A stretch of 64,000 bases of DNA, taken from the NCBI GenBank assembly GCA_027021705.1, contig JALUTT010000002.1, positions 1-64,000 on the forward strand. The letters run 5' to 3'. Every line of letters begins with the position of its first letter. The stretch's first letter is position 1. The position numbers are program-made. The DNA is from Anaerolineae bacterium. GTDB taxonomy: Bacteria > Chloroflexota > Anaerolineae > S140-20. Positions 30,001-33,000 of the stretch are shown piece after piece.

Positions 30001-33000
30001 CCGGCACGTGGTTCAGTTCGTCCCCCAGCCCTGAGCGCTCGATGACGTCCGCGCCCATATTCACCGGCACGGCGACCAGCAGGTCGTAGGGGATCTCCTG
30101 CTCGTCATAAGAGATGAGCAGCTTCTTGTCCGGGTCCACCCGCTCGACGAAGAACTCGGGCACCACGGAGATGTTCTTCTCCTCCAGGATGTTGCCCAGC
30201 AGCTTCGAGGCCCGGGGCTTGGTGAAGGCACCGGGCAAGGGGGTCACCAGGGTCAGTTCCACCCGATCCCGCATGCCCTGGGTGTAGAAGTACCAGTCGG
30301 CCAGCATGATGAACTCCAGGGGGGCGACAGGGCACTTGAAGGGCGTTTCCATGATCGTGACCACCATACGGCCCCCGGACCAAGTGCGCAGGTGACGGGC
30401 CAGAGCCAAGGCTCCCTCGTAGGTGTAGAAGTCGTGGATGGACTTGCGCCATTCGTGTTCGGCCAGGCCGGGCGTCTCCTCGGGCCGAGGATGGGTGCCA
30501 GTGGCGATGATGAGGAAGTCGTAGTTCAGGTAGCGGTTGTCCTTGGCGATGCGCACCCGGTTGTGCTCCGGCTCGATCATCTCGATCTTGGAGACGATCA
30601 TCTCGACGCCCGGTGGGATGAAGTCCCGCTTGGGCTTGATCACGTCGTTCCGACCGTAGATGCCAAAGGGGATGAAGAGGAAGCCGGGCTGATAGTAATG
30701 GGTCTCCTCCTGGTCCACGATGGTGATCTTCCACTCATCGGGGTCCAAGTGGTGGACCAGTTTGTTGACGACCATCGTTCCGGCCGTCCCGGCTCCAAGG
30801 ACCAGTAATCGTTTCATCGTGTTCTCACTCCTCCTACAGGTTGGTTAGTTGGGCAATCGTCTTCAGTTTTCCCACCAGGACGCTGCGCTCGGTGGCGATG
30901 TGGGAGATGATGTCGGCGATCCGCTGCAGCAGGGAGAGCACCCACGCGCGCCGGTCCTGCTCCAGATGGTAGACCTCCTCCAGGTGGGGGATCAGGACCT
31001 CCGGCGAGACCTCAAAGGTGGCGGCGATGGCCTCGATCTCCTCCTGAGACGGGGGCCAGCGGTCGGGGGCGATGCCGCCCACGATGACCATCCCTTTCAG
31101 TTCAGAGCCGACGCGTACGAAGGCGCGGGCGCAGAGGAGTCCCAGGTGGCTCCGGGTGAACTTGGGCTCCAGTTCGACCGTAGCAGCCAGGCCCTGCCAT
31201 CCCTCGATGCACTTCTGGAGGGCGTTGGTGTGTTGGTTGATGGCGGAGAAGAGGCCGCACGGATTGCTCAACCGGGTGATGGGGCGGACCTGCATGTCGG
31301 TGATGATCAGCATCAGGCCCAGCGCCTCGGCGAAGGTGTCTTGGATCAGTTGGACGCATTCTAGGGGCAGCAGGGAAGCCAGGTCATCGTCGGCAGGGGG
31401 GGAGGGGGTGAGTTGCAACGAGGGTGTTGAGCCGTTCACCTGGGCCTGAAGCCATTCCTTCACCCGGTCGGCCGGGAAACGCCACAGCCGGCCCACCTTG
31501 ATGGCCGGAATCTGACCGGCCTCGGCCATCCGGTAGATGGTCGAGCGGTCCACCTGGAGCAACTCCTGCATATCCTTCGCGGTCAGCATTTCCGCCATAC
31601 TGTCCCTCCCCCAGTTATTGTGATAACCGGAACTTTCGCGCTTATTGTACCCTGCCTTTTTCTGCACGATAAGTGATATATTGCAGGATTCAAACGTGAT
31701 AAGTGTCACAATATGCAGAAAAGGAAACAAGATGCAGAATATGCAAAGTGTGCAGGGCTAGCATAGATCTGAAGCGTTGGCCGGCGTGGATAACCCTGAG
31801 TCAAGACTCCCGAAGTCTGCCAGACCTCAGGAGTCTCCCAACACTTATTCGCGCTAACGGGCCTTGTGGTCAGCCGAGGGAAGGGGTCAAGCGGGCGTCG
31901 GGGGGAACCGTCTGGGTGCGGTCTATGACCACCTGGCGGTCAGCATTTTGCCGCAGCGCCAGGTGGGGCAGGGGGTGGGCGGCAGGACCGGCCTCCACGG
32001 TCCCGTCGGGAGCGAAGCGGCTGCCGTGGCAGGGGCAGCGGAACCCCTCCGGCGTCTGGTCCACCAGGCAGCCCAGATGGGTGCAGACGGCGGAGATGGC
32101 GAAGTAGCCGTGCTCGTCCCGGGCCAGGTAGGCCCGGGCCGGCGCGATGTAGAGGAGGCCGCCGGGGGCGAGGGAGGAAGCGTCCGGAACCGGGACGGGC
32201 GGCGGCGCTGGCGTGGTGATGGGCGGGGTGAGGAAACGCCAGAGGGCTCGCACCGAGCCCAGGAGGGCGAGGACCAGGCTGCCACCCAGCAGCCGGCCCA
32301 GGAAGGTCCGGCGGCTCATCCCCTCTCTCGTTCGGGAGGCGTCGTGCTCGTTCATTGGACTTGCGTTCCGTTACGGTGGTGACAGGAACGGCTTCAGCGC
32401 GTCGTCGCGCGGATAGGCGTGACAGGCGTGGCAGTAACGCGATTCCTGCTCGTCGGGTTTCTGTTGGCAGGCGCTCCCGTAGACCAGCGGCACCTCCACC
32501 TCTTCTCCCGACACCTTGAGGGTCTCCACGAAGCGGCCCGGTGCCACCTCTCGGACGGCCCACATCTTCTCTCCCCTAGGGGTGACGACCACCCGGTCGC
32601 CCACCCGGAGCTTCCCGTGGCCGTTGAGTTGGGCCTGGCGCATCGCCGGCTCGTCCTCGGCCGTGATGGGGGCCGTCTGAGGGAGCTCCCACAGCGTGCC
32701 GTGGCAGGTGCGGCACCGGACCACCTGGCTGTCGGTGACGGCATCGGCGATGTGGCCGTTCCCCATCACCTCGTCGCTGGTATGACAGTCTATGCAGTCC
32801 AGCTCCCACTCGCAGAGGGTGAACTGGCCGATGGGCTGGTAGTACTCGGCCAGGCGGCGCTGCTGGCGGGGCAGGAAGTCGGAGAGGGAGGGGCCGGCCG
32901 GCGGCAGGTCCGGGCGTGGCGTGAAGGCCATCGTGCGCAGGGAGTAGTTGCCCCGGTTGTGGCAGTGGTTGCACTGGGAGAAGGGGATGGCGGTGGTCAG

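Follow-up and report, generated by a model that had tools for sequence, protein, structure and literature searches.

What do two paralogous proteins that join an excisionase-type DNA-binding domain (HTH_17) to a PocR domain control in an Anaerolineae bacterium, and which signal might they sense? Both proteins, g00041 and g00052, are encoded among sulfur genes in the window analysed here, a stretch of 64,000 nucleotides (positions 1 to 64,000 of contig JALUTT010000002.1; source genome G000). The most likely reading of the sequence is that g00041 acts as an on/off switch on short DNA repeats, which would keep sulfur-handling genes silent until sulfide or a related compound appears; such an architecture would be new among sulfur sensors.

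Two regulators among the sulfur genes of the window

The regulators and their neighbours are laid out as follows.

26217..27493, minus: ThiS-like protein and TtuA-like tRNA thiolase, adjoining here and not kept in relatives
27748..28254, minus: DsrE2-like sulfur carrier
28353..28670, minus: TusE/DsrC-family sulfur relay protein
28833..29594, minus: DUF1641 helical protein
29585..30817, minus: type III sulfide:quinone reductase (SQR), Cys form, passing model NF049943
30834..31598, minus: g00041, 254 aa, HTH_17 + PocR, heading the SQR operon
31870..34850, minus: cytochrome b, ExtM-like multiheme cytochrome and Rieske protein (Ext-like module)
34934..38810, minus: PsrA/PhsA-like molybdoenzyme, Fe-S subunit and NrfD membrane subunit (polysulfide/thiosulfate reductase-like)
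38833..39411, minus: second YeeE/YedE half, with an in-frame TGA (39132-39130) at the GxCPG cysteine
39422..39958, minus: YeeE/YedE (Sulf_transp) half
39978..40985, minus: membrane-anchored protein with CxxCH motifs, no family match
41010..41741, minus: g00052 (ATG at 41741), paralogous HTH_17-PocR regulator heading the Psr operon

In g00041, a BldC/Xis-like winged helix-turn-helix (wHTH; the HTH_17 domain) spans residues 4-53 and a PocR/GAF-like sensor domain residues 76-235, with Cys81, Cys114, Cys130, Cys156, His151 and His233 as residues of note. The protein is 67% identical to g00052, both exceed the Pfam cut-offs for HTH_17 and PocR (77.5 and 83.8 bits with PF10114; cut-off 23.9), and they are the sole two family matches in G000. 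These results bear out the genome-wide survey's note, which had described two paralogous HTH_17-PocR proteins of which NCBIfam recognises the excisionase domain only: TIGR01764 alone passed, and the PocR and MAD1 models fell far below their cut-offs. For MAD1 (NF047737) the scores were 46-49 bits against a cut-off of 80, and the window regulator is a 254-aa fusion, not a stand-alone small protein. Neither window protein matched an AraC domain (NF047788, 21 bits; cut-off 500), an ArsR model, or, in Pfam, the CsoR four-helix or sigma-54 AAA+ domains; the note's view that the family is unrelated to the ArsR-type SoxR and sHdrR therefore stands, the fold also being different. No integrase was found among the annotated recurring neighbour clusters, single-locus neighbours falling mostly outside this annotation.

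Between g00052 and g00041, all on the minus strand, lie genes for a cytochrome c-like protein, two YeeE halves, a PsrA/PhsA-like protein, PsrB, NrfD, cytochrome b, an ExtM-like cytochrome and a Rieske protein, and downstream of g00041 follow SQR, DUF1641, DsrC/TusE, DsrE2, ThiS and TtuA. We thus reproduced the order given earlier, in which the regulators bracket a polysulfide-reductase operon and precede an SQR-DsrC-DsrE-ThiS-TtuA block, and add DUF1641, which had been left out. The block is complete in the window, but ThiS and TtuA occur in 0 of 171 related loci and therefore lie outside the conserved module, so that we rejected them as members. The PhsA model scored 620.8 bits on the PsrA/PhsA-like protein, below its cut-off of 694. 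The in-frame TGA of the second YeeE half is a probable selenocysteine codon; a selenocysteine in SQR was rejected for the loci listed, where all SQR matches have Cys at the HxxC site.

A two-clade family tied to sulfur operons

Among 301 phylum genomes, we found 11 HTH-fused loci in 10 genomes besides G000, nine with sulfur-carrier, sqr or GcvH-like neighbours and two with an FAD/Fe-S oxidoreductase, in agreement with the survey's counts (10 of 300 genomes; 9 of 11 loci with sulfur genes and 2 with an FAD oxidase). The family does not extend throughout the phylum, as had been stated: its spread is patchy, with 16 full-length loci in 14 of 401 genomes. Nor is it confined to Chloroflexota. The relatives examined here, the best 80 of 157 and the best 80 of 554 matching stretches, also include Actinomycetota and a few Bacteroidota/Ignavibacteria, Calditrichia and KSB1 records. 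The ESM Atlas held auto-named HTH+PocR clusters only.

The family falls into two clades that are about 30% identical, with the window genes in clade A (loci were assigned by HMM for the clade and promoter counts). We also looked for longer, fused proteins related to the clade B sensor and found none, which is weak evidence. Among the matches listed, a sulfur-carrier, SQR or YeeE gene lies downstream on the same strand within 3 kb in 76/85 clade A and 55/86 clade B loci, compared with 0/16 HTH-only control loci and a G000 background of 0.13%. After clustering at 70% identity, 38 of the 41 informative clade A clusters and 39 of the 46 clade B clusters had sulfur context. SQR is the first gene after the regulator in 75/85 clade A loci (among the matches listed). 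In 5/85 clade A loci neither a core gene nor a sulfur-respiration gene lies downstream: three FAD oxidoreductase loci, L033, and L024 (sulfur genes on the opposite strand only). In clade B, 12 further loci head sulfur-respiration genes, four more have such sulfur genes upstream or on the opposite strand only, and 13/86 have neither a downstream core gene nor a sulfur-respiration gene (6 Ext-like, 1 FAD oxidoreductase, 6 other).

At least five different sulfur modules are headed by family regulators. The CxxCH membrane-anchored protein recurs ahead of YeeE-YeeE-PsrA behind regulators of both clades, and the Ext-like module is found beside clade B regulators too. The proposed link between this transcription-factor family and sulfur-trafficking or sulfur-redox operons is stronger than first stated and holds in two deep clades. 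The lipoate and TusA genes named in the note are a feature of clade B rather than of the clade that includes the window genes. Other candidate sulfur sensors share these islands: 8 loci contain CsoR-like genes, and ArsR genes are present in L024, L160, L172 and L195.

Tandem TGCA arrays as a candidate operator

Upstream of the two window regulators we identified the following elements.

31733..31754, minus: three in-register TGCA units with a 9-bp period, candidate operator of g00041
31717, minus: further TGCA unit upstream of g00041
31695..31710, minus: CRP/FNR-like palindrome TGTGA-N6-TCACx, with a second, degenerate copy near 31685
31644..31666, minus: proximal TGCA/GGCA units at 31666 and 31656, adjoining a -10-like hexamer TACAAT (31649-31644)
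31623, minus: TCACAA half-site upstream of g00041
41864..41916, minus: degenerate 9-bp array upstream of g00052 (TGCA at 41916, 41894 and 41885; TGCG at 41876; TGCC at 41867)
41845-41860, minus: CRP/FNR-like box upstream of g00052

We take the palindrome at 31695..31710 to be of CRP/FNR type from its likeness to the consensus. A scan for consensus sigma-70 sites found no full promoter at g00041 or g00052. No RNA entry was listed for 28300-32300, which is evidence neither for nor against. With a matrix trained without window sequence, the g00041 promoter obtained the top score of a G000-wide scan; the g00052 array is weak, at rank 13 and below the 10th percentile of training promoters. The sHdr-like cluster of G000 (contig C99) has no array. 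A wide regulon in G000 was rejected, the other high-scoring sites being mixed and a second triple-TGCA site lying inside an ORF on contig C76.

The arrays recur across the family with a clade-specific period. Among the matches listed, TGCA pairs at a 9-bp period occur in 73/85 clade A and 2/81 clade B promoters, and pairs at a 10-bp period in 57/81 clade B and 9/85 clade A promoters; control promoters contain repeat pairs in 3/275 cases, and in 1/129 and 4/129 in another control set. The strict pair is missing from 12/85 A and 24/81 B promoters, and when clade B is clustered at 60%, its period is seen in only 9 of 17 clusters. Where promoters have clear, near-consensus -35/-10 boxes, the array lies within -36..+25 in 14 of 19, the other 5 having no strict pair. 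Arrays also precede separate target promoters, of sqr at L039 and of octaheme tetrathionate reductase at L160 and L195. In G019 and G295, genome-wide matches to the clade B pattern were confined to the promoter of the regulator itself; G175, G108 and G015 had none.

The period follows the regulator clade for the same target: sqr has a 10-bp period under clade B at L173 (L099 has no strict pair) and a 9-bp period under clade A, and Psr operons occur under both clades. Moreover, in five Anaerolineae-class genomes an ArsR gene takes the regulator's position before the same type of sqr operon, and these five operons have no array. The arrays are common to two phyla, and we propose them as the candidate operator of HTH_17-PocR regulators. 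This candidate and the regulator swap with ArsR are new relative to the survey.

The DNA-binding domain superposes on BldC (6AMK) with Z 8.5 and an rmsd of 1.2 Å over 51 of 52 residues. BldC is also the best sequence match among solved structures (6AMA, E 2e-4 with the clade B profile), the clade A profile matching none by sequence. The recognition helix is invariant in the family: Arg23, equivalent to the YpG-reading Arg30 of BldC, is present in 86/86 and 85/85 members. Of the positions that match the head-to-tail interface residues Leu43 and Gly44 of BldC, position 35 has V and I as its two commonest residues, and G36 is invariant. BldC binds 9-bp repeats head-to-tail and was described as unique among MerR-like regulators in binding direct repeats through the wHTH alone (PMC5859096). 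On our broader reading of a new sensor class, which has about even odds, the clades would recognise one and the same core at a pitch of 9 or 10 bp, so that the head-to-tail interface, rather than the recognition helix, would determine pitch.

The sensor domain and its possible signals

The survey had singled out a CVQLIQD/LCAR pair of Cys motifs. Both window copies contain it, but it is not family-wide: among the matches listed, C81 is present in 1/32 Actinomycetota and C156 in 3/85 clade B members, and on these counts we rejected it as a family-wide sensing pair. Of 54 Chloroflexota clade A members, 51 have both C81 and H233. None of C81, C114 and C156 is present in 16 aligned non-family PocR domains, and the family has added C81 and C114 to the domain. 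At the canonical PocR positions 117, 130 and 150, clade A has Cys in 0, 81 and 0 of 84 proteins, and clade B in 85/85 each. None of the family-specific Cys is universal: part of C114/C130/C156 is missing from 12 of 84 clade A proteins, 7 of which still precede sulfur genes, and the family member P0135 has no Cys at all.

Structure searches returned GAF, IclR and roadblock folds at Z 8-10.5, with no PocR-domain structure among the rows shown. A homodimer model scored 0.65 compared to 0.00 for the best control (runs share at least 48% of contacts, with pLDDT of at least 77), a mark that 20 of 30 solved pairs attained, as did 1 of 23 solved single chains; the score leaves zinc out, and the pass may reflect likeness to solved structures, because helical dimers of the GAF type are widespread. 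In the model, C81 contacts H233 of the partner chain.

We consider a reduced-sulfur species the probable signal. With the same DNA binding and targets, the sensor might instead bind a small organic ligand, an alcohol or a thiol such as methanethiol, and signal electron-donor supply, not sulfane sulfur. PocR domains are described as sensing alcohols or chloromethanes (1,2-propanediol, methanol and dichloromethane, characterised or proposed), clade B keeps the full C117/C130/C150 triad as Listeria PocR and the Clostridium kinase do, and an FAD/CCG oxidoreductase follows the regulator in both clades. However, no alcohol-catabolism genes recur among the neighbours, two of the three canonical Cys are gone from clade A, and sulfur chemistry, not a carbon substrate, is common to the targets, which together make an organic ligand unlikely.

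A general thiol-redox or oxygen switch, in which oxidation would form a disulfide or release a Cys-bound metal and the sulfur operons would be part of an anaerobic programme, fits the four to five conserved Cys, the CRP/FNR-, Rex- and DosR-like promoter boxes, the GAF kinase/LuxR pairs and pyruvate:ferredoxin oxidoreductase that are frequent neighbours, and the hydrogenase operons often headed by clade B. We regard it as improbable: the regulon is local, with one or two sites per genome, unlike that of a global redox regulator, redox input appears to be supplied already by the other boxes, and a single-Cys ArsR protein swaps in at the same operon.

Selenide or selenite sensing, with operons that handle selenium as much as sulfur, is suggested by the probable selenocysteine-containing YeeE in the window and six related loci, by an SQR that passes a 'selenoprotein subtype' model, by a selenium-metabolism LysR in 4 loci and by the resemblance of Ext-like modules to selenite/tellurite reduction operons. 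We think this very unlikely, as the listed SQRs have Cys, the Ext matches score far short of cut-off, TusA, DsrE, DsrC, GcvH-like proteins and Isp-type hydrogenase all belong to sulfur systems, and selenocysteine use would mark redox chemistry rather than selenium catabolism. That the repeats belong to another factor, the HTH_17-PocR gene being a co-transcribed passenger or a co-regulator without DNA specificity, could draw on the ArsR, CsoR-like, LysR and two-component regulators in many loci and on the short, palindromic nature of TGCA, but is highly improbable given the period switch with regulator clade at sqr and Psr operons, the loss of an array common to two phyla where ArsR replaces the regulator, and the invariant recognition helix.

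Proposed mechanism and significance

On sequence grounds, then, we favour g00041 and g00052 as one-component, autoregulated local repressors of the sulfur operons they head, released by a sulfur signal; local autorepression is the very likely part. The mechanism would start from the N-terminal BldC/Xis-type winged helix and promoters with tandem 9-bp TGCA units, both apparent in silico. The heads would tile the units head-to-tail, with invariant Arg23 reading the TpG step. The GAF-like PocR domains are modelled to dimerise via helices 79-93 and 214-252, and one dimer would therefore carry a pair of flexibly linked heads. Transcription would be blocked when the -35 to +25 region is occupied. 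In the least certain step, sulfide, polysulfide or a persulfide may react with the cysteines of the sensor or displace a metal from them; these would be C114/C130/C156, together with C81, which faces H233 of the partner subunit. The array would then be loosened and the SQR-DUF1641-DsrC-DsrE2 or Psr module induced. A second input from global anaerobiosis regulators is probable, through CRP/FNR-like and Rex-like boxes in Chloroflexota and DosR-like boxes in Actinomycetota.

The odds are about even that a BldC-type DNA-tiling head under a rewired PocR domain constitutes a further structural class of primary reactive-sulfur sensor. By the same reading, and with equal reserve, the sqr-DUF1641-dsrC-dsrE2 and tusA-dsrE-lipoate-Isp-hydrogenase operons may be sulfur-inducible units of mostly uncultured bacteria. 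If true, PocR domains would gain a ligand class beyond alcohols, the family would show ligand switching of a BldC-like array, and its clades would offer a natural 9-bp versus 10-bp pair for studying how pitch is encoded. Furthermore, the family points to candidate sulfur pathways in Chloroflexota and Actinomycetota of sediment and sludge: the DsrC-DsrE2-type III SQR unit, and lipoate proteins together with an Isp-type hydrogenase. With an operator predicted, the claim is testable with one soluble protein and short DNA.

Comparison with known systems

The ArsR-type persulfide sensors SqrR, BigR, SoxR and sHdrR (PMC12423496, PMC13467558) are autoregulated repressors with conserved Cys that head sqr, tusA, dsrE and yeeE genes, and the HTH_17-PocR family is likewise encoded next to sqr, sulfurtransferase or yeeE genes. 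It differs from them in fold and in a candidate operator that is a tandem repeat, not a dyad, and its sulfur sensing is here only predicted. The CsoR-type CstR and YrkD and the sigma-54 activator FisR also place sqr/sulfurtransferase clusters under reactive-sulfur control (PMC13467558, PMC9918477), with domains unrelated to HTH_17-PocR. A 2026 review counts primary reactive-sulfur sensors in three superfamilies only, CsoR, ArsR and Fis (PMC13467558), and a PocR/HTH_17 sensor would therefore add a new scaffold.

With the PocR regulators (Salmonella and Listeria PocR, MtaR and PocR histidine kinases) g00041 has PF10114, C130 and His151 in common, whereas the window clade has C81, C114 and C156 instead of C117 and C150. 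The output of these regulators is a C-terminal AraC domain or a kinase, and pdu, cob or mta genes are their targets; that of g00041 is an N-terminal HTH_17, in a family whose targets are sulfur operons. Streptomyces BldC (6AMK, 6AMA) resembles g00041 in wHTH fold, 9-bp repeat unit and matched residues (Arg30=R23, Asp24=D17, Thr27=T20, Leu43=V35, Gly44=G36, Arg48=R40). BldC is a 68-residue monomer and global developmental regulator with no effector or dimer domain; g00041, in contrast, adds a PocR/GAF sensor of about 160 residues with predicted dimerisation; its regulon is local, and its family includes a sister clade of 10-bp period.

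Two putative regulator genes and their operons in the window

Two paralogous HTH_17-PocR genes, encoding putative regulators, lie in a part of the window (26-42 kb) where every gene is on the minus strand.

31598..30834, minus strand: g00041, open reading frame of 254 aa
Start at 41741, minus strand: g00052, open reading frame, paralogue of g00041

Their products are 67% identical, both pass the Pfam cut-offs for HTH_17 and PocR, and a search of the genome (G000) for family matches returned only these two. From g00052 the genes run through a CxxCH membrane protein, two YeeE halves, PsrA-like, PsrB, NrfD, cytochrome b, an ExtM-like cytochrome and a Rieske protein to g00041, and on through type III SQR, DUF1641, DsrC/TusE, DsrE2, ThiS and TtuA. 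We reproduced the genome and locus counts of the genome-wide survey's note, and the SQR-DsrC-DsrE-ThiS-TtuA block that it described does follow g00041; ThiS and TtuA, found beside the regulator in 0 of 171 related loci, fall outside the set that these share.

Two near-identical copies of an element of ~60 bases, together with other repeated words, lie at 42100-42360 in the long intergenic region ahead of g00052. A short REP-like repeated element (31800-31845) has the Rieske gene on one side and the g00041 promoter on the other; a similar one lies ahead of the region of sqr's regulator in locus L039. Positions 12340-19906 (minus strand) carry xanthine-dehydrogenase-family molybdoenzyme genes and XdhC, adjoining a lipoyl-synthase-like gene and a MOSC-like open reading frame (named by eye, XdhC excepted).

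A family of two clades beside sulfur genes

Relatives were collected by a word search (1,673), a profile search (172 representatives, E up to 1e-30), genome scans (the best 80 of 157 stretches with the profile of the window's clade, the best 80 of 554 with a second profile) and an even phylum sample that gave 13 further loci. The 171 distinct proteins fall into two clades in a FastTree rooted at its midpoint (supports 1.0 and 0.98): clade A, with 86 members including the two from the window, and clade B, with 85. In a subsample, identity between the clades was about 30%. Full-length members occupy 16 loci in 14 of 401 phylum genomes. The proposed Chloroflexota family is real and a well supported candidate, with a wider range than had been claimed: 33 clade A loci group with Actinomycetota, most by the titles of their records and five untitled ones by judged similarity, and clade B takes in Bacteroidota/Ignavibacteria, Calditrichia and KSB1 records among the best 80 of 554 stretches. 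The domain pair itself is already in databases under automatic names. In small genomes (L102, L108-L114; family f28), a conserved HTH_17 protein of ~180 aa differs in its C-terminal part and lacks sulfur neighbours.

In clade A, 76 of 85 loci have SQR, DsrC, DsrE, TusA or YeeE no more than 3 kb downstream and in the regulator's own orientation; of the others, four are cut by a contig end, three have an FAD/CCG oxidoreductase, one has sulfur genes on the opposite strand and one has none. In 75/85 the gene directly after the regulator is SQR, and the complete SQR-DUF1641-DsrC-DsrE set is present in 63 of the 72 loci with enough sequence. Among 86 clade B loci, 55 have a core sulfur gene (TusA first downstream in 46) and 12 have sulfur-respiration genes, namely octaheme tetrathionate reductase with a PhsC-like protein, or a hydrogenase small subunit with TmcC-/DsrK-like proteins; the remainder comprise four with sulfur genes upstream or opposite, six Ext-like, one FAD oxidoreductase, two cut and six other. 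The gene panel was chosen from neighbours at these same loci and named via Pfam/NCBIfam; as controls, HTH_17-only loci gave 0/16 and stranded positions in G000 0.13%. Because kin loci are not independent, we also counted clusters at 70% identity, of which 38 of 41 informative ones in clade A and 39 of 46 in clade B are sulfur-linked.

The clade B order hydS-TmcC-like-DsrK-like-hydL agrees with hynS-isp1-isp2-hynL, whose proposed role is to link H2 to the reduction of sulfur (PMC7735108, in part), and from gene order we infer hydrogenases of that type. A recurrent tusA-dsrE-dsrE2-gcvH-like operon (L116-L195, such as L123, L141 and L163, and L256) runs into an Isp-type hydrogenase, not sHdr. In L256 it is followed by another GcvH-like gene, a pair of lipoate ligase genes and a pair of radical SAM genes, the parts list of sHdr-LbpA lipoate assembly (PMC11094781, in part). 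The lipoate carrier proteins of such operons may serve H2-driven sulfur reduction.

A 1,020-aa FAD_binding_4, FAD-oxidase_C, Fer4 and CCG protein follows the regulator in both clades (L064:8884-11952, L066, L081, L258:7182-10274, L260) and may itself be a sulfur-linked enzyme; in L260 its gene is convergent with a pyridine-nucleotide oxidoreductase-rhodanese fusion. Eight loci (L038, L041, L044, L046, L049, L050, L053, L062) share an upstream island of a GAF kinase/LuxR pair, P-type ATPase, CsoR-like repressor, DUF302 and a second, distant SQR, with pyruvate:ferredoxin oxidoreductase downstream. In G000, C99:28058-40866 (minus strand) encodes TusA, DsrE2, DsrE, GcvH-like, Hdr-like subunits, ETF and a second GcvH-like protein, and looks like an sHdr-LbpA cluster (subunits identified by eye); a divergent two-component pair adjoins it, and no repeat array was found there.

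Tandem repeats as a candidate operator

Clade A promoters carry TGCA units spaced 9, 18, 27 and 36 bp apart, far above shuffles, and clade B promoters an asymmetric unit, CTATWGCAAA. With the same test applied to each clade, 9-bp pairs are present in 73/85 clade A vs 2/81 clade B promoters and 10-bp pairs in 57/81 clade B vs 9/85 clade A promoters. Pairs were found in 3/275 promoters of one control set and in 1/129 and 4/129 of a second, three of those four being clear arrays. When G000 was scanned with a matrix whose training set held no window sequence, the g00041 promoter ranked first and the g00052 promoter 13th. In a genome-wide scan with the clade B pattern, G019 and G295 each gave the promoter of the regulator and no other site, and G175, G108 and G015 gave no match; a triple-TGCA pattern occurred at one or two places per genome in five genomes, one of them without the regulator. 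Three-unit arrays away from the regulator's own promoter precede sqr (L039) and the octaheme gene (L160, L195). A fourth such match, in L037, looks like coding sequence. On this sequence evidence the array is a candidate operator.

The structure model of the regulator (mean pLDDT 87; linker 56-69 below 50) places its HTH on the BldC-whiI complex with Z 8.5 and rmsd 1.2 Å over 51/52 residues; by sequence, too, no solved structure matches better than BldC. BldC binds head-to-tail on 9-bp direct repeats, with a YpG step read by Arg30 (PMC5859096, in part). The corresponding arginine, R23, does not vary in either clade, and D17-R18-x-T20-x-Y22-R23 is kept almost throughout. The clades differ at positions 19, 25-27, 31-32 and 49; these border the interface residues of BldC and, we hypothesize, may set the repeat pitch.

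In 19 promoters with near-consensus -35/-10 boxes, neither window promoter being among them, the array falls within -36..+25 in 14, which points to repression, and five have no strict pair. A palindrome that resembles the CRP/FNR consensus occurs in 34/49 Chloroflexota-group and 0/33 Actinomycetota clade A promoters, a Rex-like half-site in 33/49 and 1/33, and a DosR-like box in 0/49 and 19/33, all three patterns having been tuned by eye on the very promoters counted. Only the tandem array is common to both phyla, and G000 encodes a Rex and a CRP-family gene. The Rex consensus follows PMC2883068 and the DosR string is found in PMC2275270 (both in part).

ArsR proteins at orthologous sqr operons

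Besides G000, the phylum sample holds 11 close sqr orthologues (at least 62% identity): five stand behind an HTH_17-PocR gene, five behind an ArsR gene and one with a dyad. Single-Cys ArsR proteins, under the BigR cut-off, head the same sqr-DUF1641-dsrC-dsrE2 operon in L201, L202, L205, L206 and L207, and no array was seen before the five ArsR-headed orthologues. Similar ArsR genes are also found in L024, and in L160, L172 and L195, where they separate the regulator from the octaheme gene. In L203 (G210), where no regulator gene adjoins sqr, a perfect dyad (arms of 8 bases) lies ~70 bases ahead of it and is a candidate third control mode of the operon.

Sensor domain and proposed mechanism

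The sensor domain is GAF-like (Z 9-10.5 to MglB, IclR and NifA GAF). Two copies modelled together score 0.65 against 0.00 for the best control, with contact agreement of at least 48% and pLDDT of at least 77 across runs; the mark was reached by 20/30 solved pairs and 1/23 single chains, rough counts owing to our own alignment and a zinc ligand. The model thus supports dimerization, although likeness to solved GAF dimers may account for the pass. In the predicted interface, helix 78-93 packs against helix 223-237 and C81 would meet H233 of the other copy, a pair present in 51/54 Chloroflexota clade A members vs 3/85 of clade B.

The canonical PocR Cys triad binds metal. Sixteen PocR domains were compared, three of them from Firmicutes PocR proteins: all three and most of the other 13 carry C117/C130/C150, and none of the 16 has C81, C114 or C156. 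In clade B the triad is kept in 85/85, with C81 (85) and C114 (74) in addition. The 84 clade A proteins are without C117 and C150 and have C81 in 53 (Chloroflexota 52/52, Actinomycetota 1/32), C114 in 77, C130 in 81 and C156 in 78. C114 is missing in all three clade A members ahead of the FAD oxidoreductase, and also in some ahead of sulfur genes.

The sequence data show the architecture, the gene context, the repeat arrays, the way these covary with clade, and the substitution of ArsR for the regulator at some operons. We propose that the regulator very probably binds the array, represses and autoregulates, and that a reduced-sulfur signal would, on balance, act on its cysteines, the least certain step. 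Sulfur sensing is the likely function predicted. An organic ligand of the PocR type is the first rival, for which the intact triad of clade B speaks and against which the loss of C117 and C150 in clade A does. A general redox switch is the second. Selenium is a third possible signal, and one gene between the two regulators bears on it.

39411-38833, minus strand: YeeE/YedE half with an in-frame TGA (39132-39130), where close homologues have Cys or TGA

This half is probably a selenoprotein, judging by a hairpin 3′ of the codon, a tRNA-Sec in G000 and homologues with TGA in L024, L080, L159, L162, L169 and L191; the position is Cys in L026 and L065. YeeE selenoproteins are on a list in PMC13188914, with a different motif. 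Separately, a selenium-metabolism LysR adjoins the sqr operon in L007, L012, L013 and L022 (NF040786 passed for L012). The last rival, a mere passenger gene, sits poorly with arrays that covary with the clade.

Relation to known sulfur regulators

Published lists place the primary sensors of reactive sulfur in the CsoR, ArsR and Fis types and treat MarR, OxyR and PerR as secondary (PMC13467558; PMC12423496; PMC9918477; each in part). The consulted portion of PMC12423496 mentions neither PocR nor excisionase, the PocR-domain literature, as far as its accessible parts go, shows no tie to sulfur, and our search of the main text and abstracts of openly accessible papers found no description of a PocR/HTH_17 sulfur regulator. 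The predicted operator adds to this candidate regulator family, which would combine known kinds: a BldC-like head, a PocR sensor and a repressor of sulfur operons.
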